Shown here: one piece after another, positions 7,954-42,240 of the stretch
Layout: the number at the start of each line of letters is the position of its first letter
Numbering within the stretch: position 1 is the stretch's first letter
Virus genome (UHGV): UHGV-0128348
Length of the DNA: 42,240 nucleotides
From: a virus
Strand: one strand, 5' to 3'
Notes under the pieces: model-generated
Seen by the model: only the letters and a program-made list of their open reading frames with translations
What the model was told of the DNA's origin: nothing
Database searches by the model: none
Translations under genes and position numbers: made by a program

Positions 7954-9690
7954 TCACACAATGATGGGATTACTGAAAAAGTCGTCGATATCGCCAGAAT
8001 CATCCTCATAGCCTTCGGAGGCACCGATTGCCATAGCGCCCGCTACAATGCCGTCGATACGCCCGGTACTTTTTTTCTTGGCAAAAATTCGGTTTTCTTT
8101 CTGATCAGCCTCCGTCACTGCTGAAGCCGCATTCCAGCGAAGACAAGGGTTCGTCCTGATGATAATGACGCTGTCATCAAGCAACTCTTCAAACAATTCG
8201 ATGGAGTGAGGCATCCACAGCCCGGAGTCTTTCGCTTTGTAATACCCTTGCCCATGAGGGATTAAGGGAACAGAAACAGATGCTTCCTCAAGCTCCGGCT
8301 CAAGATATTTAATGCGATACTGGTCGAAGGCGATGGCCTTGATATCAAACTTTTGAGTCAGATCTGCAATGCGCTGGGCAACAAAGCCGTATTTCACTGC
8401 TTTGCCAGGTGTGGTGTGTATGTGACCATCGCGCTCCCAGGCGTCATAAGGTACCCGGTCCGTTTTGGCCCGTTCCAGTAACGTATCTTTCGGGGTCCAG
8501 AACTCCACCAGCAACTTACGTTGTTTTGGAAAAAACAACGCCAGTGCCGTCAAATCACGCGATCCGGACAGGTCCAGACCGCCATAGCATTCCTCACCTT
8601 CCAGTTCATCTGGATCAAAGCTCTCCTCACAACCCATCCAGACATCACTGCTCATCCACGGATTAGCCGCGTCAACCCACTGACAGAAGTTAAGACGTCT
8701 GACGATGCTCTCTTTCGATGGCATCCCGCGGGCCTGAGTCACCTGCTCACGAAGATAGCTTTCTTCAAAGGTGTGACCCAGCGAAGGGTTAGCTTTCTTC
8801 CAGCAGGACTCATCCTTGAAAGGATCGTCTCCTTCATCCAGAGAACAAATGAAGGCAAAAAAGCTGTCATCTTCTATCGAACCGCCAGACACCTTTCGGC
8901 CGTATTCGTGATAGTCATAGCAGACGCTGGTTTTATCGTGCCCACTGTTGGTGATCATGAAAATCAGCGCCTGCCGACGACCTTTGGTACCGGCACGCAT
9001 CATTTCAACGACCTGATTGCTTTTATGCTCGTGAACTTCATCAATAAGAGCACAATGCGGTCGCGGGCCGGACTGCCCGTCATCTGAACTGATTGGACGA
9101 AAGAAGGAACCAGACTGAAGAAAAGCCAGGTTCCATTCCTTACCGGCACCACCTGATTTCTGAATACGTGCGGAAAGAGCTGGAGATTGATCCACCATCG
9201 CAACCGCATCACGGAAAAGGACCATTGCCTGGTCTTTCTTCGTGGCAGCGGCATAAACTTCAGCGCGTGCTTCTTTATCCGCAGTGAGACAGTAAAGTCC
9301 TATACCCGCAGACAGAGGGGATTTACCGGATCCCTTCCCGGACTCCACATAGACCATTCGGAACCGGCGAAAACCTCTGGCGTTTTTCCAGCCAAAAATC
9401 GAACCGACGATGAAGCACTGCCATGGCAGCAACACGAAAGGCTCGCCTTCGAAATCACCACCATTGAGCTTCAGAACTTTCGCAAAATAGTCAATCGAGC
9501 GTTGCGCCGCCTCAACATCCCAGTGCAGACCACGGGCATGGCATGACTTCAGGTCATTGAGATGGCGCTGGCATGAGTTACGGATGTCAGGACCAGCCAG
9601 TTCTTTGCCCGAGGTTACATCCATCGCATATTGGGTTGCAGGATCAACCGAAGAACTTGTCGAGCGTGTCCTCTTCGGGGTCTTCGCCAT
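7954..9690 (-). CDS. terminase large subunit
   Basis: 578-aa ORF; ATPase region (...VESGKGSGKS...) and C-terminal nuclease region; start could alternatively be the internal ATG at 9627. Confidence 0.85.
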   Translation of the reverse strand: MAKTPKRTRSTSSSVDPATQYAMDVTSGKELAGPDIRNSCQRHLNDLKSCHARGLHWDVEAAQRSIDYFAKVLKLNGGDFEGEPFVLLPWQCFIVGSIFGWKNARGFRRFRMVYVESGKGSGKSPLSAGIGLYCLTADKEARAEVYAAATKKDQAMVLFRDAVAMVDQSPALSARIQKSGGAGKEWNLAFLQSGSFFRPISSDDGQSGPRPHCALIDEVHEHKSNQVVEMMRAGTKGRRQALIFMITNSGHDKTSVCYDYHEYGRKVSGGSIEDDSFFAFICSLDEGDDPFKDESCWKKANPSLGHTFEESYLREQVTQARGMPSKESIVRRLNFCQWVDAANPWMSSDVWMGCEESFDPDELEGEECYGGLDLSGSRDLTALALFFPKQRKLLVEFWTPKDTLLERAKTDRVPYDAWERDGHIHTTPGKAVKYGFVAQRIADLTQKFDIKAIAFDQYRIKYLEPELEEASVSVPLIPHGQGYYKAKDSGLWMPHSIELFEELLDDSVIIIRTNPCLRWNAASAVTEADQKENRIFAKKKSTGRIDGIVAGAMAIGASEGYEDDSGDIDDFFSNPIIV

Positions 9691-13957: not shown

Positions 13958-13961
13958 GCCC

Positions 13962-13986
13962 AAAGAAAAAGCCCACCGAAGTGGGC
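13962..13986 (-). terminator. rho-independent terminator (minus strand), convergent with previous
   Basis: Hairpin GCCCACTTCGGTGGGC followed on the minus strand by TTTTTCTTT. Confidence 0.5.
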
Positions 13987-14363
13987 CTTACAGCTATCAT
14001 CATTTTTTATTAGGTGTGGTGCCGGGTGCCTCCCGGTGAGCATGCCCCAACAGACATCACTCGCGTGGTATTCACAGGGCTTTCGCTCTATTAGTTGGAC
14101 GCCCCTCCGCATAGGGGGATTCACCACACGGATAATTTAGGATGTAGTCATGGGCGGCGTCAATAACTGACACTCTGTCAAAGGCACCATTACGATGCCT
14201 TTTGCACAGTGCTAATCACTGGCTCTAATAAGGGGCCAGAGCAAAGCGATTACCCCGGCTACCAGCACGCCATCAGCCAGGATTGACATCATTTTGCTGG
14301 TGAAGTCGATAGCAACCACCAGAAACAAAAGCACCCCAGCTGCGGCCCAGCGAAGTTTACCGA

Positions 14364-16745: not shown

Positions 16746-17058
16746 AATCCAAGACGATTAACAGAAAAACTGCCAATCACTTTGGTAAATCAGGACAATC
16801 CGTTGGCATTAGATGCAATATAGCAACAAGTAAACACTTCATAAATGCCATTTGGTTATATAAAGAATGACTTAACAACTCCATTTGTTATAAATGCTAT
16901 ATATTGATAGTTGAGCATATTTAGGCACTAAATATGTCCAATTACTGTTAATTGGCTATGTATATATTGAACCTATTCCCCGAGCTCCACATAAGTTCCG
17001 TTTCGTGGAGCCGATACCGACGGTTTTGCACCGGAAGAATCTTCGCGGGAGTATGTAG

Positions 17059-17131
17059 TGCTGGTTGACGGAACTGAACCGCCTACATCCTGCTTACAAG
17101 GCAGGCGCTCTCCCAACTGAGCTAACCCAGC
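17059..17131 (-). tRNA. tRNA-like gene, anticodon UGU (Thr), with non-canonical features
   Basis: Minus-strand cloverleaf: acceptor GCTGGGT, D-arm GCTCAGTTGGGAGAGC, anticodon stem CCTGC/GCAGG with loop CTTGTAA, T-arm GGCGG-TTCAGTT-CCGTC; G6-A67 mismatch; G at position 58; no encoded CCA. Confidence 0.5.
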
Positions 17132-35020: not shown

Positions 35021-35863
35021 ATGACCAAATCAACCATAACCAGAGAAGAAAACATTCAGGCCGTATTCGATTTAAAGGCTGGTTATACATTGGGGCTCGC
35101 CGATGTAGAGATTCTCAAGCGAGTAGCTCGCATGGCGCTGGCCGCAATGGATAGCGAGCCGGTTGAGATGCCTCTCGACTACCTACAGGGGCACAAAGAT
35201 GGTCTGGAGTGGGTCGCTCAACTGGCAGAAGCCAATCACCCTGAAACCGGAGACTGGCTTTACGATGACCCTATCGAGCTGGCAAAGGCTATTCGCAAGG
35301 GTCCAGATATGCCGCCAGCGCCGGTAGTGCCGGAGAATCGCGTAACAGCAGAACACCGACGCGTTATTGAAATGCTGCTCAACGTATGCGGGGCCGCATT
35401 TGAACTCGCGGATGATAGTTGCCAGCAAGATGTTGACGGGGAAGATTGTCATGTTGTTCCAGACGGTGCATTTCAGAAACTAAGTGATGCGCTGGACGAA
35501 ATAGAAAACACTCTTCCGACCGAAGATATCGACAGACCAGATGTATTTCTTGCCTGGTCGGCAATGCCAAGGGCAGCACTAAAATCTATTCTCAATGCTG
35601 GCAACTCTCCGGTAATTCCAGAGGGTTACGTGATGGTGCCGATGAGGTTAACCGCTGAGAACGGCGCAAAGGGTGTGCTATCTGGCGAATTTTCAGAAAC
35701 ACAGTTTGTAAACTGCCCGGAGTGTTTTGGTGATGATGAGTGCGAAACATGCGACGGCAGCGGCAGAATTGAAATAAAAGTGCCAGTCAGTTGGACGACT
35801 ATAAAAGAAATTTGGATTAAAGGTGTCGAGCATTTTGCAGCCGCACCGCAGGAGAATAACTAA
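35021..35863 (+). CDS. hypothetical phage protein with C-terminal Cys cluster
   Basis: 280-aa ORF with ...CPECFGDDECETCDGSG... Confidence 0.55.
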   Translation: MTKSTITREENIQAVFDLKAGYTLGLADVEILKRVARMALAAMDSEPVEMPLDYLQGHKDGLEWVAQLAEANHPETGDWLYDDPIELAKAIRKGPDMPPAPVVPENRVTAEHRRVIEMLLNVCGAAFELADDSCQQDVDGEDCHVVPDGAFQKLSDALDEIENTLPTEDIDRPDVFLAWSAMPRAALKSILNAGNSPVIPEGYVMVPMRLTAENGAKGVLSGEFSETQFVNCPECFGDDECETCDGSGRIEIKVPVSWTTIKEIWIKGVEHFAAAPQENN

Positions 35864-35864
35864 C

Positions 35865-36431
35865 GTGAACCATTTAATGATCGACATCGAAACAATGGGT
35901 AACAAGCCTACTGCGCCAATTGTCGCGATCGGCGCTGTATTCTTCGACCCGCAAAGCAGTGAGTTGGGCGCAGAGTTCTATGTGGCCGTTAACCTCGCCA
36001 GCGCTATGGATCAGGGTGCGACACCTGACGGTGACACTATCCTGTGGTGGCTCAAACAATCATCAGAGGCCCGAGCAGCTATTTGTACCGACGATACCAG
36101 AAGCATTACATTTGCTCTCTCCGAGTTGAGTTCATTTATCAGCCGCCACTCTGACAACCCACGTTATATCAAAGTCTGGGGTAATGGTTCCAACTTCGAC
36201 AATGTGATTTTACGCTCAGCCTACGACCGCGCCGGCCAAACCTGCCCGTGGTTATTCTGGAACGACTGCGACGTGCGCACCATGGTGTTGCTCGGTAAAC
36301 AACTTGGTTTCGACCCCAAAAGCAATATGCCATTTGATGGTGTAGCCCACAACGCATTGGCCGATGCCCGCCACCAAGCAAAATATGTATCGGCAATCTG
36401 GCAGAAACTATTGCCTACAAGCGACGAATAA
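35865..36431 (+). CDS. 3'-5' exonuclease (DnaQ-like fold)
   Basis: Start GTG 35865 (GGAG RBS) or ATG 35877; ...MIDIETMGNKPTAPIVAIGAV... with D-x-E motif. Confidence 0.6.
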   Translation: MNHLMIDIETMGNKPTAPIVAIGAVFFDPQSSELGAEFYVAVNLASAMDQGATPDGDTILWWLKQSSEARAAICTDDTRSITFALSELSSFISRHSDNPRYIKVWGNGSNFDNVILRSAYDRAGQTCPWLFWNDCDVRTMVLLGKQLGFDPKSNMPFDGVAHNALADARHQAKYVSAIWQKLLPTSDE

Positions 36432-36473
36432 CAACCCTTATCGCCCGGGTGCAGCCGGGCAATGGAGAAATCT

Positions 36474-36680
36474 ATGCTGAGCCTCGATTGTGTTCCCATC
36501 TCAACTTATTGCAAAGAGACAGGCGAAACCCCTGATGCCATAAATAAGCGCATCCAGCGCGGCGTATGGCGTGAAGGGGTACAGGTGCTAAAGGTCGAAG
36601 GCGTTAAGGAAAGATGGATAGATCTTAGTGAGGTTGCAAAATGGGCTCGACAAAATCGCCTAAACTCCCGCGCGGCGTAA
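36474..36680 (+). CDS. xis: excisionase
   Basis: Small basic ORF directly upstream of and overlapping integrase; start at second ATG with GGAG RBS. Confidence 0.55.
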   Translation: MLSLDCVPISTYCKETGETPDAINKRIQRGVWREGVQVLKVEGVKERWIDLSEVAKWARQNRLNSRAA

Positions 36681-37831
36681 CGATCAGGAAACATAGTACT
36701 GGGGAAACTATCAATATTACCTTTACCTATAAGGGGGTGAAATGCCGGGAACCTTTATCAAACCTTGAAATTAATAGCAAAAACATTAAATACGCCGAGC
36801 GAACACTCGGCGAAATTCACAATAAAATTGAGCGGGGTACATTCAATTATGGTGAACACTTTCCCCGTTCGGCACGACTTAAAATATTTGGTAATTCTTC
36901 AACAGGAAAAACGGTAAAAAATTATCTCGATGAATATCTTGTAATTTGTGAAACGAGAAAATTATCTCCCTCAACAATCGGCGGATATAAGAAATGTTTA
37001 AATGCTCTGGCATCACTTCACGTTTTTCCTGCCAGCGAATTAACACCTGCTGCTTTAAAAACATGGATCCAGAGTCAGAAAACGACATTAAAGACGATTA
37101 GGAACCAACTTTCATTCCTACGCTCAGCACTGGATGAAGCTGTGACTGATGGTGTATTGCAGATTAACCCTGTTTCACTGGTGACAGCCTCGCGCTACCA
37201 GAGTAGTAAAACCGAGGATGAAAGTGATTATATTGTTGATCCGCTTTCGCCAGCCGAGGTTGAAGCGCTTTTGCATGCCGCAGGTAACAAGCAGTGGGAA
37301 AACATATTCCGCTTTGCAATTGAAACCGGGCTACGTAGTTCTGAACTCTGCGCCCTCCGTTGGCGCGATATCGACTTTATCGGCAAAACAGCGCATGTGC
37401 AAAATGCCAGCGTAGTGGGGGTAATTAAGGGCACGAAAACTAAAGCTGGAACACGTAAAGTTGAGTTAACCGAAGAAGCCTTGTATGCCCTGACTTCTCA
37501 GAAGCCTTTCACCTTTATGAAAGATGCAACGATCTTTGAGGATCCTAAGACAGAAAAACCATGGGCGGGTGCCGATGCGATAAGAAAGAAAGCCTGGGTG
37601 CCAACTTTACGTAAAGCTGGGATCAGGTACCGTAATCCATACCAGACCAGGCATACGTTCGCGACCCGACATATAAGTCGTGGCGCTAACCTGTTCTGGC
37701 TGGCATCACAGATGGGACATAAAGGGCCAGAAATGTTGTTCAGGCATTATGGACGCTATCTGAAGGAGTATGACGGCAACACTGAAAAACGACCCAAGCT
37801 GGTCAGCGGTGGAACCTCAAAGGAGCCGTAA
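36641..37831 (+). CDS. int: tyrosine integrase (lambda Int family)
   Basis: 396-aa ORF with C-terminal catalytic region ...RHTFATRHISRGANLFWLASQMGHKGPEMLFRHYGRY...; adjacent att core. Confidence 0.85.
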   Translation: MGSTKSPKLPRGVTIRKHSTGETINITFTYKGVKCREPLSNLEINSKNIKYAERTLGEIHNKIERGTFNYGEHFPRSARLKIFGNSSTGKTVKNYLDEYLVICETRKLSPSTIGGYKKCLNALASLHVFPASELTPAALKTWIQSQKTTLKTIRNQLSFLRSALDEAVTDGVLQINPVSLVTASRYQSSKTEDESDYIVDPLSPAEVEALLHAAGNKQWENIFRFAIETGLRSSELCALRWRDIDFIGKTAHVQNASVVGVIKGTKTKAGTRKVELTEEALYALTSQKPFTFMKDATIFEDPKTEKPWAGADAIRKKAWVPTLRKAGIRYRNPYQTRHTFATRHISRGANLFWLASQMGHKGPEMLFRHYGRYLKEYDGNTEKRPKLVSGGTSKEP

Positions 37832-37889
37832 AGGATCCGCAGCAAAACGCTAAATTTTTTTATCATTGTTTATCATGATGTTATTAAGT

Positions 37890-37925
37890 TTCGGGCGCGG
37901 GTTCAACTCCCGCCAGCTCCACCAA
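37890..37925 (+). other. tmRNA (ssrA) 3'-end fragment = prophage att core
   Basis: TTTCGGGCGCGGGTTCAACTCCCGCCAGCTCCACCA matches the enterobacterial ssrA 3' end as I recall it; upstream sequence is not ssrA. Confidence 0.7.
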
Positions 37926-37955
37926 ACATTCATTCATGATGCATCATGAACCTTA

Positions 37956-37993
37956 AAAAAGCCTGCAACTTCAACGAGTTGCAGGCTTTTTTG
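37956..37993 (+). terminator. rho-independent terminator (probable native ssrA terminator)
   Basis: Hairpin GCCTGCAACT-TCAACG-AGTTGCAGGC flanked by A6 and T6. Confidence 0.65.
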
Positions 37994-38090
37994 TTGCATG
38001 TGTGGTCATGATCTCTGTATGAATCTTGAGCATTATGTATCTTGTTTTGCACCGCGTTGCCTGAACGCTAAAAAAACAAGGTGCAAAAAC

Positions 38091-39338
38091 ATGCCTAAGG
38101 TATTGAAATCCCTAACCAATACCGAGATCGCTGCCGCCAAGCCGCAGAAGACCGAGTATATGCTGCGCGATGGCGACGGACTGGCGTTGTTGATTAAGCC
38201 ATCCGGCAGAAAGATCTGGTACTTCGAATACACTCCCCCGGCGCTGAAAAAACGGACCAAAATCAGCATTGGCCCCTATCCGGTAGTCACCCTCGCCATG
38301 GCGCGAGATTTCAGGTTGCAATACCGGCGTTTACTCGTGCAGGGCATCGACCCGCAGGCCCATCTGGAGCAGGTTGCAGAGGAGCAACGACTCCAGAATG
38401 AATGCACGCTGGAAAAAGTGGCAGAACAGTGGCTCAAAGAGAAAAAACGGACCAGCGATCTTAGCGAAGATCACGCCAAAGATGTCTGGCGCTCGCTGGA
38501 GATGCACGTCTTCCCTTCTCTGGGTAATACACCCGTTACCGAGATCCGTCCCAAAATGCTCAAGGAACACCTTACACCGCTGGAAGAACAGGGCATCCTC
38601 GAAACGCTGCGGCGGGTTATCTCACGACTCAATGAAATCTTCCGCTTCGCCATCTCCGAAGAGCTTATCGAGTTTAACCCAGCAGACAACCTGGTCGCCC
38701 GCTTTAAGAAACCGAAAAAGCAGAATATGCCCGCCCTTCACCCCAGCGAGCTGGGCAGGCTGATGCTGGCGCTATAGAACGCCTCTATCCGCAAGGAAAC
38801 CCGCTGCCTTATCGAATGGGAGCTACTGACCTGGGTTCGCCCCGGCGAAGCCGTCAGCGCCCGCTGGTGCGACATCGATATGAAAAAAGCGGAATGGCGC
38901 ATCCCCGATACTTTTATGAAGATGAACCGTTCGCACACGGTGCCGCTCAGCAAACAGGCGCTGCGCGTTCTTCAGGTTATGGAGCCCGTCAGTCGCCATC
39001 GCCCGTGGGTTTTCCCCAGTATCCGCAAACCACTGGAGCATATGCACCAGCAGACCGCGAACGCCGCGCTTATCCGCATGGGGTTCGGCGGCGAACTGGT
39101 CGCCCACGGCATGCGCAGCATCGCCAGGACCGCAGGAGCAGGTCATTTTCCCCGTGAAGTCCTGGAATCTGCGCTAGCACACCAGAAAGAAGACGAGATC
39201 GAAGCGGCCTACAACCGCAGCGACTATCTGGAACAAAGGCGACCGCTGATGCAGTGGTGGGGAAACTACGTTGATGCTGCCAGACGGCAGGCATTGCTCG
39301 GTGAAGAAGAACCGCTGCGGATCGTGGAAGGAGAATAA
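38091..39338 (+). pseudogene. P4-type (IntA-like) integrase interrupted by one in-frame TAG
   Basis: ORFs 37998..38777 and 38880..39338 share a frame; the frame is open across 38778..38879; only stop is TAG 38775..38777; N-terminus MPKVLKSLTNTEIAAAKP..., C-terminus ...YNRSDYLEQRRPLMQWW... Confidence 0.7.
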
Positions 39339-39339
39339 T

Positions 39340-39984
39340 GTGACCAGTCCCATTCGTCAGAATCTGTTTGAACGGGAATGCGATATGCCGCTGCTGGAAG
39401 CGCGGCATCTCGCCCTTCTGCTTCTCGGCCTTGATGCTTCCCAACCTGCAAACGCCCTACCGGAAGAACATCAGGAGAATTACCGTATCCTGCACGACGC
39501 CATCAGCCGCACCATCAAAGCCACAGGCATGGTCAGCGCCCCTGCAAACAAACGTATGTTCTATGCCGATGAGATGTTCGCGCTGGCCTGGCGGCTTATT
39601 GATGACGAACTCACGCCGCCAGAAATTAAGGCCCGCAGCCTGAAGGCGGTGATGAAACTGTCGCGTAACGGTCGTGGTCGCAAGTGGCTGAAGACGCTCG
39701 GCGACGACGCGCTACCGGATCTCACTGCTTCCGCACAACCTTCCCAGCGTGGAATGTATAAGCGCGACAAAGCGCGGGAGAATACTGCCCGACTCTGCTG
39801 GCTACTGGTTCAGCTACTGGTTGAGGAGACTGACGGACGGTATGGGACGTATGATAAACCAGCTTCGGATCGGATACTTCGAAAGCTGAAAATGCTGGCG
39901 CAGGAGCGGGAATTGCCGTCGGATGGGCTTGGACGGGGGACGTTTTATGAGGTGTTGAAGATGGGGCGGGTGAAGAAAGTGTAG
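39340..39984 (+). CDS. hypothetical protein
   Basis: ORF 39271..39984; likely GTG start 39340 with GGAAGGAG RBS just after integrase stop. Confidence 0.45.
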   Translation: MTSPIRQNLFERECDMPLLEARHLALLLLGLDASQPANALPEEHQENYRILHDAISRTIKATGMVSAPANKRMFYADEMFALAWRLIDDELTPPEIKARSLKAVMKLSRNGRGRKWLKTLGDDALPDLTASAQPSQRGMYKRDKARENTARLCWLLVQLLVEETDGRYGTYDKPASDRILRKLKMLAQERELPSDGLGRGTFYEVLKMGRVKKV

Positions 39985-40256
39985 GTAGTTGCTGCATAGT
40001 GTCGGGATGTAACGAACCGATTAAACTCTGAAACCGCCTGATGTATAGTTGGCTTGGAGCCAATAGCAGATATGAATGAATCGATTGCAACAGAATCTCC
40101 GTCTGATCAAGACGTCTTCAAATTCTTGAGGTTATAGTGTGTGGTGCTCAATGAATCGTTGCGCAGGAAATTTGACCTGCGGACCATTTCAGCTGCAGCA
40201 AAAACAGGTAGCGTATCAAATACAGATGAAATCAGGCATTATGCAATGGAGACAAG

Positions 40257-41048
40257 ATGATAGATGAGAGCGCAAAAACGATAGCCGAAAAGCTCGCTGT
40301 TCCGGTTTATGAAGATGCCCTGAGCCCTTTTGCTAAAGAATTATCAAAGGGGTTAGTCTCTATTGCCAGAATGGTAAATTCGGGAATATTCCTAGTTGAA
40401 GACAGTGTGCATGCGGTGACAAGCGTCTTACGGATGACAGCTGAGAATCTGGCATTATTACCACCCAAGCAAATTTCATTCGATCGGCCAAGGGTTGCTC
40501 TTCAGGCTCTAAATGAGGCCAAATTTGCAATAAATGAAGATGAAATACAGCGCCTTTTTTCAAATCTAATATCGGCAAGCCTAGACAAGAAAACTTCGGG
40601 GATTGCTCATCCAGCGTACATCGAAATAATCAAACAGCTCCAGCCGGATGAAGCCAGGATCCTTCGGTTTATGTTTAATAAAGAAAAGAATAGAAAAGGT
40701 CATGCACCCACAATTGATATTGTCCAACAAGATTCAAAGGATAGTAACTTCAGAACCACATCAACTACACCGGAAGTAAACCTAATTTGTGAAGATGCTG
40801 GTTGCGATATCCCCGAAAACTCATTTATGTATTTCTCCAACTTAAAACGATTGGGCCTGCTAACTACAACATCAGGAACTTCTTTCCCAAAGGAAGAGCA
40901 TGAAAGAATTTTCTCATCAGAGAAGGTAAAAGAAATATGCAGTGTAAATTCGCATCTAGATAGAGTTTCTTATAAAAGCGGGCAATATAGTTTTACAGGT
41001 TTTGGTCAAGGCTTTGTAGATTCGTGTATCGGCAGACATAGTATTTAA
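40257..41048 (+). CDS. AT-rich hypothetical protein, possibly Abi-alpha-like
   Basis: 263-aa low-GC ORF beside an integrase; N-terminal ...AEKLAVPVYEDALSPFAKELSKG... recalls Abi_alpha/DUF4393 (memory only). Confidence 0.4.
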   Translation: MIDESAKTIAEKLAVPVYEDALSPFAKELSKGLVSIARMVNSGIFLVEDSVHAVTSVLRMTAENLALLPPKQISFDRPRVALQALNEAKFAINEDEIQRLFSNLISASLDKKTSGIAHPAYIEIIKQLQPDEARILRFMFNKEKNRKGHAPTIDIVQQDSKDSNFRTTSTTPEVNLICEDAGCDIPENSFMYFSNLKRLGLLTTTSGTSFPKEEHERIFSSEKVKEICSVNSHLDRVSYKSGQYSFTGFGQGFVDSCIGRHSI

Positions 41049-41424
41049 CAAGTCAATAAACTGTGTCGGTTATTGAGGCCTTAACGTTCGCAATTCGCTC
41101 AGGCTGTGTAAAAATGTTTTTGATTGCAGAAATGGCCTAAAATAGAACTGAAAATCGCTTCCCTATGTAAAATTCGACTCTGATAATCAGCCGTTTGATT
41201 CCAGATTTTGCATAACCTCATGCATTCCAGTATTCGATGAGAGTTTTCACACAGCCTGCGCTCATAGCAGACCAAGTACCACTTCAGTAGGTCCGCTTTG
41301 TGCAAGATATATAGGTATTAAGCTGTTCCATTGGCTAACACACTATGATGTTAGTAATGTCTTCATTATCAATATGAGGGCATCCCCATGAAGAAGCGTT
41401 TTTCCGACAAACAGATCATCAGTA

Positions 41425-42240
41425 TTACTCCACAAGCGGGATAAGCTTTTTACCCGTATCTTCGAAGAATGAAAATGAAGCCCAGCGATATGTATATACC
41501 AAAGCAATCTTGCCAGAATGTGCCTCAATAACTTCTTTTAAATATGACTTACGTTTGCTGCCATCTGGAAATTTAGCCGAAAAGGTCACTATTGCTCGTG
41601 ATGATAGTCCGCCACCATTTCGCATAAAGAGAATAAAATCACTCCCTCTAAACACATTAAACTCCGCGCAATTTGTCACATCATTATCAAACTTAGCAAC
41701 TACATTTTTTATTTTGTCATAGAGGCTAACCATATCCCCAAAAATATTTCCATCTGCTAACTGAATATTTCTTTTATTTAACTCGGCTATATACCCATCA
41801 TCATTAACTTTTCCAATCGGGTATCGTGCCTGAAGTACTATATCTTGTGACGCAATTTGCAATAGCTTCAATTCGTCAACGGTTAATGCCAACTCCAAAT
41901 CAATAGCCATCCTATCAATCTTATGACCATAATCGCGAAACTTAAGATCTATCGTGTCTTTTTGCGCACCAAGATTCATTAAAAGAATCGCAGACTTTAA
42001 CAGCATTTCGAAAGCATACCCCAACATAAGCCTGCTTGTTTTATCTGTTGCTGATGCGATATCGATATATTCATGCACAACGGGAGATTTCTTACTTGTA
42101 GCCAGAAACAAGCTCTTGTTTCGATCACCTTCACTTCTCAAAAGCTTTGCTGATAAATACAGCTTTTTGGACTCTGTTAACCAAGCCTTACGATCAAAGA
42201 TACCTTTTCCATTTTTCTGCGTAATTATTTCGCTCTGCAT
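41425..42240 (-). CDS. AT-rich hypothetical protein (start at or beyond window end)
   Basis: 271-aa low-GC minus-strand ORF whose first ATG is at the window edge. Confidence 0.5.
   Translation of the reverse strand: MQSEIITQKNGKGIFDRKAWLTESKKLYLSAKLLRSEGDRNKSLFLATSKKSPVVHEYIDIASATDKTSRLMLGYAFEMLLKSAILLMNLGAQKDTIDLKFRDYGHKIDRMAIDLELALTVDELKLLQIASQDIVLQARYPIGKVNDDGYIAELNKRNIQLADGNIFGDMVSLYDKIKNVVAKFDNDVTNCAEFNVFRGSDFILFMRNGGGLSSRAIVTFSAKFPDGSKRKSYLKEVIEAHSGKIALVYTYRWASFSFFEDTGKKLIPLVE

Follow-up and report, generated by a model that had tools for sequence, protein, structure and literature searches.

Two AT-rich cassettes, probably phage-defence cargo, in the variable slot of a Klebsiella ssrA island

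Abi-alpha (EF2833), a 272-aa product of prophage 6 of Enterococcus faecalis V583, leaves adsorption of the phage Idefix intact, and infected cells are killed, lysing ~10 minutes early (PMC6356687). Lossouarn et al. reported PDB 3H35 as a structural relative of this protein (PMC6356687). In Gifsy-1, a phage tail-tip protein activates the single HEPN protein HepS, which then cuts tRNA anticodon loops; this solo prophage protein both senses the phage and executes abortive infection (Abi) (PMC13043305). Tha is another solo HEPN Abi protein, on a similar theme (PMC11087260). Here, we compare with these systems two AT-rich genes, referred to as gene 1 and gene 2, that form a convergent pair at the end of UHGV virus genome UHGV-0128348 (the whole stretch of 42,240 nucleotides analysed is called the window) and belong to an island at the ssrA gene of Klebsiella.

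The reading that we favour, with a probability of roughly 60%, is that this end of the window is the start of the slot of an ssrA island, a slot carrying two independently acquired AT-rich phage-defence cassettes that are split by insertion sequence (IS) debris. The features that make up the slot within the window are listed below, with the two genes as given by the open reading frame (ORF) listing.

40257–41048, plus strand: gene 1, 263 aa
41425–42240, minus strand: gene 2, a complete 271-aa protein
40051–41101, plus strand: gene 1 cassette, ~1.05 kb, sharing 90–92% nucleotide identity with unrelated Pectobacterium and Citrobacter loci
41259–42240, minus strand: in-window part of the Mrr_cat–gene 2 cassette, whose Mrr_cat gene and promoter region lie beyond base 42240
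41095–41272, no strand given: orphan fragment, ~180 bp long, of an IS110-family (ISEsa2-like) element, from its non-coding 5' end
41307–41439, plus strand: left-end fragment of an IS3-family element, with the inverted repeat and the first orfA codons, including 'MKKRFSDKQIISI'

The GC content of gene 1 (0.402), gene 2 (0.376) and the spacer between them (0.402) compares with 0.562 for the 214-aa gene of the island backbone, 0.553 for the island integrase and 0.496 for the entire window, and the GC content at third codon positions is 0.35 in each of the two genes. Homologues of both are AT-rich (GC 0.31–0.42) whatever the host. Clusters of homologues of the same length numbered 41 for gene 1 and 31 for gene 2, and the pairwise ratio of non-synonymous to synonymous substitution rates against homologues from other genera was 0.16–0.22 for gene 1 and 0.09–0.20 for gene 2. 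Both genes are real and under purifying selection. A reading made from the sequence alone, before any database was searched (the sequence-only reading), had recorded two low-GC convergent ORFs on these strands, as the ORF listing and the GC values of 0.40 and 0.38 bear out, and had given the length of gene 2 as at least 271 aa. The length was correct but the reading frame is not open-ended, as the ATG of gene 2 is formed by the final three bases of the window, giving a protein of exactly 271 aa. Close full-length homologues are 269–272 aa and align with it from end to end, and hence gene 2 is complete. A search of NCBIfam returned no match for gene 1, gene 2 or the 214-aa backbone protein, and a PHROGs search of the cargo and backbone proteins returned only families of 'unknown function'. 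No RNA family was found in an Rfam scan of the cargo region, promoter-like sites were rarer there than in shuffled sequence, and a terminator scan found none between the convergent genes.

The slot was defined by comparison with related islands. In Klebsiella, the left part of the locus has the order smpB, ssrA, an optional prophage, a P4-like integrase (415 aa) and the 214-aa gene, and the right part consists of the gene 1 and gene 2 pair, facing each other, followed by a 302-aa Mrr_cat gene in the orientation of gene 2, alpA and a DUF927 primase gene, beyond which are small helix-turn-helix (HTH) genes and then the gut operon. The slot is 3.36 kb long, between the integrase/214-aa gene and alpA-primase, and its first 2.25 kb are in the window. 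An ssrA island in E. coli 118UI has a backbone that is 90–92% identical; homology stops at window position 39987 and begins again past the Mrr_cat cassette, the right-hand break falling at position 8890 of Klebsiella contig L004. The slots of this island and of eight IMG/VR loci with the same integrase and 214-aa gene (nine in all) were examined with PADLOC, with the following results.

E. coli 118UI: PD-T7-5 (E=2.4e-137)
L042: Lamassu LmuA/LmuC/LmuB (E=7.9e-118 for LmuB)
L032: Lamassu LmuB (E=5.4e-38)
L033: retron reverse transcriptase, type I-A (E=2.2e-135)
L035: PD-T4-7 (E=9.2e-35)
L037: Gabija GajA/GajB (E=0 for GajB)
L038: PDC-M48B alongside E1-E2/JAB and WYL proteins, one of each (E=3.3e-100 for PDC-M48B)
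L036 and L039: weak PADLOC matches only

Strong matches were thus present in seven of the nine related slots, and the slot is a defence hotspot. The sequence-only reading had regarded integrase-proximal AT-rich cargo in ssrA islands as a common home for defence genes, and the interchangeable known systems in these slots support that view. The slot contents of its relatives make it likely that the Klebsiella cargo is defensive, and are the strongest contextual argument for this. The arrangement resembles the hotspots of P4-like satellites and prophages described by Rousset et al. (2022, PMC9122126) in having an integrase-proximal variable slot with conserved flanks and in that defence systems are swapped among elements that are otherwise ~90% identical, but here the slot is between the 214-aa gene and alpA. 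No psu, delta or sid family was found among the called genes of the Klebsiella contigs (L004–L011), and with only int, alpA and the DUF927 primase the island is not a complete P4-like satellite.

One of the related slots, of 7 kb (L038:9943-16104), encodes a WYL regulator and a 743-aa fusion of E1-E2 and JAB in addition to a metallo-beta-lactamase (MBL)-like PDC-M48B protein and another protein that is LmuA/MBL-like, and from these assignments it is a candidate defence cluster of the ubiquitin-like conjugation type.

The two cassettes were delimited separately. That of gene 1 was determined using blastn of L004 against L024 and L026, with the window coordinate calculated as 52241 minus the L004 coordinate. 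The surroundings of the homologues of each gene are as follows.

Pectobacterium, 94% identical to gene 1: alone
Citrobacter, 90% identical to gene 1: immediately preceded by a P4-like integrase and followed by a HEPN_LA2681 gene
Proteus-type island, 84% identical to gene 1: followed by an Abi_C gene
E. coli, homologue of gene 2: alone, immediately following the integrase of a lambdoid prophage
Pectobacterium, homologue of gene 2: in an island, beside PD-T4-1
K. pneumoniae, homologue of gene 2: preceded by an integrase and a 232-aa gene of no known family
Pantoea, homologue of gene 2: partner not recognisable
Metagenome element, homologue of gene 2: accompanied by Prim-Pol, NUDIX, SRA and DUF4238 genes

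In the contexts sampled outside the Klebsiella island, gene 2 was near no gene 1 homologue and gene 1 was near no gene 2 homologue. The settings of the homologues are themselves defence-like, with HEPN_LA2681 or Abi_C beside gene 1, and PD-T4-1 or DUF4238/SRA/NUDIX genes beside gene 2; the moron site of a Yersinia prophage and the position behind the E. coli prophage integrase are further settings of this kind for gene 2.

Gene 1 is, on profile evidence, a member of the Abi_alpha/DUF4393 family. It scored 139.5 bits with Pfam Abi_alpha (PF14337, formerly DUF4393), for which the cut-off is 29 (E=1.8e-40), residues 62–257 aligning with profile positions 14–196 of 196, and PF14337 was present in all 41 clusters of gene 1 homologues. 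Three PADLOC PDC-S47 profiles also matched the full length of the protein, the best (E=5.6e-36) aligning residues 9–258 with profile positions 14–261 of 263; PDC-S47 is a computational candidate only. Close homologues that bear a name are labelled DUF4393 or hypothetical. The sequence-only reading had noticed an N-terminal segment recalling Abi-alpha and had suggested a hidden Markov model search for this family; the search gave a score well above the gathering threshold and the family was right, but the extent was not, as the matches cover most of the protein. In the AlphaFold2 (AF2) model, which had a predicted local distance difference test (pLDDT) value of 83.4, two long N-terminal helices are of low confidence and the C-terminal alpha/beta half, which is predicted to be a winged-helix-like domain, is well modelled. 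PDB 3H35 is a structural relative. Gene 1 therefore resembles EF2833 in Pfam family, near-full coverage of the profile, size (263 versus 272 aa), structural relative and its layout as a single gene on a mobile element. It differs in belonging to a Gram-negative branch of the family and in being found on an ssrA island rather than in a prophage, and the likeness was drawn through these shared properties. An abortive-infection function for gene 1 would follow by analogy with this one distant Gram-positive family member.

Among other proteins considered, DUF2806/ABO_0056 (PDB 3H35) had no match to gene 1 at the sequence level, and the 'Belisama' integron-cassette defence protein (bioRxiv 10.1101/2024.07.02.601686) was grouped with DUF2806. 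Comparison of the gene 1 family profile with PDB sequences gave nothing meaningful. Gene 1 is a single gene with no conserved neighbour in the four genomic contexts, and no conserved ORF was found upstream of its homologues. A 42-aa ORF (40139–40267) that overlaps the start of gene 1 was considered as a partner and rejected, since its Citrobacter counterpart is interrupted and its Pectobacterium counterpart altered.

Gene 2 has no Pfam, NCBIfam or PHROG family match and its sole PADLOC signal was a marginal one to PDC-S19 (E=0.015), for which a literature search found no paper. An exhaustive profile search recovered 184 representatives of the gene 2 family at E<=1e-3, mostly of ~270–290 aa and including both domains, and those named in their source are all called 'hypothetical protein'. 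A third homology search with a wide alignment added three further proteins and no names. The AF2 model (pLDDT 84.4, predicted template modelling score 0.82) consists of a helical domain (residues ~17–186) and an alpha/beta domain (~196–268). The leading fold matches were to 1wol, 1ufb, 4nqf, sacsin (3o10) and 2hsb and to the HEPN toxins 7ae2, 8xdj and 5yep, with Csm6, AbiA and AbiV ranked lower, and the N-terminal domain is predicted to be a helical up-down bundle of the HEPN fold. The motifs are R102-x3-H106 and R139-Y-P in this domain and R207-x-G-G in the C-terminal domain. In 58 diverse family members W20, K82, H106, Y140 and P141 are invariant, and E23, R35, S69, Y75, E78, R139, R207, G209, G210 and W253 are nearly so. 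A lysine or arginine is found 4–5 residues ahead of H106 in 56 of the 58, and gene 2 itself has both R102-x3-H106 and K100-x5-H106. The fold matches of the model lead to the assignment of the HEPN fold, with a conserved histidine-centred site that is near-canonical yet not canonical. The HEPN-like domain that the sequence-only reading had proposed looking for is therefore recovered in gene 2 by the predicted fold but not by curated sequence models. In our view, gene 2 belongs to an unannotated family with a predicted HEPN fold, and is the more novel of the two genes; RNase activity is plausible. A polymerase-beta-type nucleotidyltransferase was rejected as an explanation of the R-x-G-G-G segment, as inspection of the alignment found no D-x-D after it.

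As in HepS, Tha and AbiV, the fold of gene 2 appears to be HEPN, and its homologues are likewise encountered as single proteins at prophage accessory positions (E. coli and Yersinia). The position of the basic residue and histidine of the motif is also similar to that in HepS (R102/H106 in gene 2, R100/H105 in HepS). Unlike HepS, which is of a type with <250 aa and a single HEPN domain, gene 2 has 271 aa and a second conserved C-terminal domain, and unlike the solo HEPN Abi proteins its motif is [KR]-x3-4-H rather than Rx4-6H and there is often a Mrr_cat gene upstream. The gene 2 profile matched no chain in the copy of PDB searched, in which the presence of the deposited HepS structures (PMC13043305) is unconfirmed. 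In contrast to HEPN-MNT toxin–antitoxin pairs (7ae2, 5yep), gene 2 has no nucleotidyltransferase neighbour, and in all the contexts examined no neighbour had a Pfam match to a nucleotidyltransferase family.

The recurrent partner of gene 2 is, judging from its neighbourhoods, the Mrr_cat gene just outside the window. The cassette (~2.0–2.1 kb) is made up of the 302-aa Mrr_cat nuclease gene, 40 bp and gene 2, in that order on the same strand. The nuclease was identified using Pfam (Mrr_cat, E=1.3e-10) and a D50...D67-x-K69 pattern was found by inspection. Cassettes with identical 40-bp spacing were found in Klebsiella, Lonsdalea, a Yersinia proxima prophage and Enterobacter. The copies are a single DNA unit with 87–89.5% nucleotide identity (blastn), which reaches window position 41259 on the gene 2 side, and the 40-bp adjacency across hosts thus represents copies of one ~89% identical cassette. 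In the Yersinia proxima prophage the cassette occupies a moron site, flanked by the Q antiterminator on one side and lysis genes on the other. A scan of genome contigs for gene 2 recovered two Enterobacter loci only, and the other contexts were gathered protein by protein. Gene 2 was found without Mrr_cat in E. coli, Pectobacterium, K. pneumoniae, Pantoea and the metagenome contig. In the E. coli copy, 55 bp from upstream of Mrr_cat have been kept together with gene 2 and Mrr_cat is absent, which indicates that gene 2 can persist alone under selection. Distant homologues of gene 2 have other upstream neighbours, and the HEPN-fold gene may pair with alternative partners. In K. pneumoniae a 232-aa protein of no family (L020:5301-5999) ends 1 bp ahead of the gene 2 homologue, and in Pectobacterium a 64-aa ribbon-helix-helix (RHH)/HicB-like protein (L018:5724-5918) is encoded upstream.

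Between the two cassettes, the IS110 fragment is ~76% identical to a site 229 bp upstream of an ISEsa2 transposase gene in Klebsiella plasmids, and is bounded by a 25-nt imperfect inverted repeat (I1; 41090–41114 and 41244–41268). IS110 elements encode a guide ('bridge') RNA in this 5' end. In the Lonsdalea copy of the Mrr_cat–gene 2 cassette, an IS110 transposase gene follows. The IS3 fragment abuts the stop codon of gene 2, overlapping the 3' end of the gene slightly, and its identity to annotated plasmid transposase genes of the IS3 family, at their 5' ends, is 82–84%; ~2,900 plasmid records were matched and the identities are those of the top matches only. This fragment is within cassette DNA common to Yersinia and Lonsdalea, and the presence of an IS3 end inside the shared DNA suggests that IS elements have helped the cassette to move between hotspots.

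If the cargo is defensive as proposed, gene 1 would be constitutively present and idle until phage infection, when, by analogy with EF2833, the cell would be killed or lysed too early and few progeny released. The winged-helix-like C-terminal half may sense or bind, and the long N-terminal helices may form the effector. Gene 2 would be an RNase activated by phage, like the solo HEPN Abi proteins HepS and Tha, with the C-terminal domain as a regulator that senses the trigger or provides autoinhibition. The Mrr_cat protein, should it cooperate with gene 2, would be an optional second effector directed at DNA.

Three other explanations were considered. The sequence-only reading had raised the possibility that gene 1 and gene 2 form one abortive-infection module. 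Their adjacency, shared AT-richness and co-occurrence in eight of eight Klebsiella contigs are what such a two-gene module would display, but the eight contigs are the same island at 99–100% identity and therefore amount to a single observation. In all the other genera sampled, the homologues are found apart, in separate DNA cassettes with their own boundaries. In the Klebsiella island the IS110 and IS3 fragments are between them and transcription is convergent, and a single module is very improbable.

An alternative in which the cargo favours the island itself, as selfish toxin or addiction genes or as genes of conflict between mobile genetic elements (satellite-versus-helper interference or plasmid exclusion), draws on the fact that HEPN and PD-(D/E)xK nucleases are common as toxins and on the satellite-like backbone of int, alpA and DUF927 primase. 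A small RHH/HicB-like gene is also located 82 bp upstream of one gene 2 homologue, and another homologue is near a gene with a SocA_Panacea antitoxin domain. However, an antitoxin-like partner is not conserved, gene 1 has no conserved upstream ORF, gene 2 is wholly alone in E. coli prophages and the slots of relatives are full of classical anti-phage systems, so we consider this explanation unlikely. We also doubt that the proteins are non-enzymatic and serve in housekeeping of the element, with gene 1 a winged-helix DNA-binding regulator and gene 2 a dead HEPN-like scaffold or nucleotide-binding protein. Observations that count against a pair of defence cassettes are considered next.

Among classical HEPN domains, many lack catalytic activity. 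Only 12 of the 58 family members have an arginine at the canonical Rx4-6H spacing (−5 to −7), lysine being commoner than arginine. Gene 2 matches no Pfam HEPN model, and a weak match to PF05168 (E=0.0028) was found for one of the 58 members. The gene 2 family profile had no match at E<=10 among PDB sequences, and a Foldseek search of the model against PDB returned nothing below E=0.06. Gene 2 was also without a match in 50,697 phage genomes. For gene 1, the only tested Abi_alpha protein is a distant one from a Gram-positive host, the phage-borne relatives are only 22–42% identical to it, in partial alignments and nearly all from Gram-positive hosts, and a literature search found no experimental paper on PDC-S47. 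The scan upstream of gene 1 gave no convincing promoter, and the hotspot sample is small, at nine slots. These points weigh against two defence cassettes in the slot, which nevertheless is the reading that we retain.

The remaining features of this end of the window belong to the island backbone and to a prophage inserted beside it.

35823–36431: prophage exonuclease
36462–36680: prophage Xis-like gene
36641–37831: prophage integrase; the prophage is integrated at the ssrA 3' end, with the body of ssrA on one side and the older island on the other
~37889–37925, plus strand: 3' end of ssrA (acceptor/T-arm of transfer-messenger RNA, tmRNA), the copy of the attachment site beside the island, with the prophage inserted into ssrA
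37955–37992: ssrA terminator hairpin, downstream of the ssrA 3' end
38091–39338, plus strand: P4-like tyrosine integrase of the island, with an inactivating in-frame stop at 38775–38777 (codon 229)
39340–39984, plus strand: 214-aa backbone gene (phrog_30524, E=6e-36), the left edge of the variable slot

The stretch that resembles the ssrA loci of E. coli and Klebsiella begins at 37889, the sequence ...GGGTTCAACTCCCGCCAGCTCCACCA is readable, and a permissive local Rfam search gave a partial tmRNA match (E=9.5e-12). No full tmRNA was detected in the whole window with ARAGORN or with Rfam at its gathering thresholds; the body of ssrA is outside it because a prophage with its own integrase has inserted into the gene. 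A protein identical to gene 2 is encoded by eight Klebsiella contigs, and L004, the only contig aligned directly, is 98.7% identical to window positions 37889–42240. The prophage insertion is present in three of these contigs (L006, L007 and L010) and is not present in L004, L005, L008, L009 or L011. The identification of an ssrA island in the sequence-only reading is confirmed by this synteny (smpB-ssrA-int-...), with the window itself holding only the 3' end of ssrA. In the upstream stretch of the window (~1–37888), a tRNA-Thr (17058–17131) and a match to the STnc100 small RNA (13958–14152) were also found.

The integrase had been called disrupted, and one nonsense codon (38775–38777) accounts for this. 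Its pieces match Pfam Arm-DNA-bind_3, Phage_int_M and Phage_integrase. Against the intact 415-aa allele it gives a single tblastn alignment with 99.8% protein identity, and 50 of 1248 nucleotides differ (96% identity), nearly all of the changes being silent. A frameshift was rejected, as the translation shows one in-frame stop and the alignment is single. The same break is shared by L008 and L011, and the integrases of L033 and L037–L041 are broken differently. Decay of the integrase looks recurrent in this island family. The cargo had also been placed beside the integrase; it is near, but the 214-aa gene is in between. This gene is 93–97% identical in 13 IMG/VR loci and E. coli 118UI, always immediately after the integrase, and might encode an excisionase, a regulator or a slot-recombination factor.

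It is possible, if somewhat against the odds, that gene 2 defines a family of anti-phage effectors not described before, with ~180 representatives after clustering at 50% identity, in which an atypical HEPN-fold site of the form [KR]-x3-4-H/R-Y-P is joined to an R-x-G-G sensor. Were this so, it would work alone, as in the E. coli prophages, or in a mobile Mrr_cat/HEPN two-gene system, and the pair would attack an invader at the level of DNA as well as RNA. Overall, the two genes are likely to be typical defence-hotspot cargo of a familiar kind, and the general understanding of defence islands is unchanged by these results. Their main value is in two clean experimental candidates. Gene 1 is a testable candidate from the Abi-alpha family, which has hardly been studied, and represents a branch of it that is Gram-negative and carried on islands, and gene 2 represents an unannotated family with a predicted HEPN fold and an optional Mrr_cat partner that is missed by current defence predictors. 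The compact ssrA defence hotspot (int, the 214-aa gene, the slot and alpA) found in Klebsiella and E. coli can be mined for systems, and the slot is relevant to phage therapy against Klebsiella.

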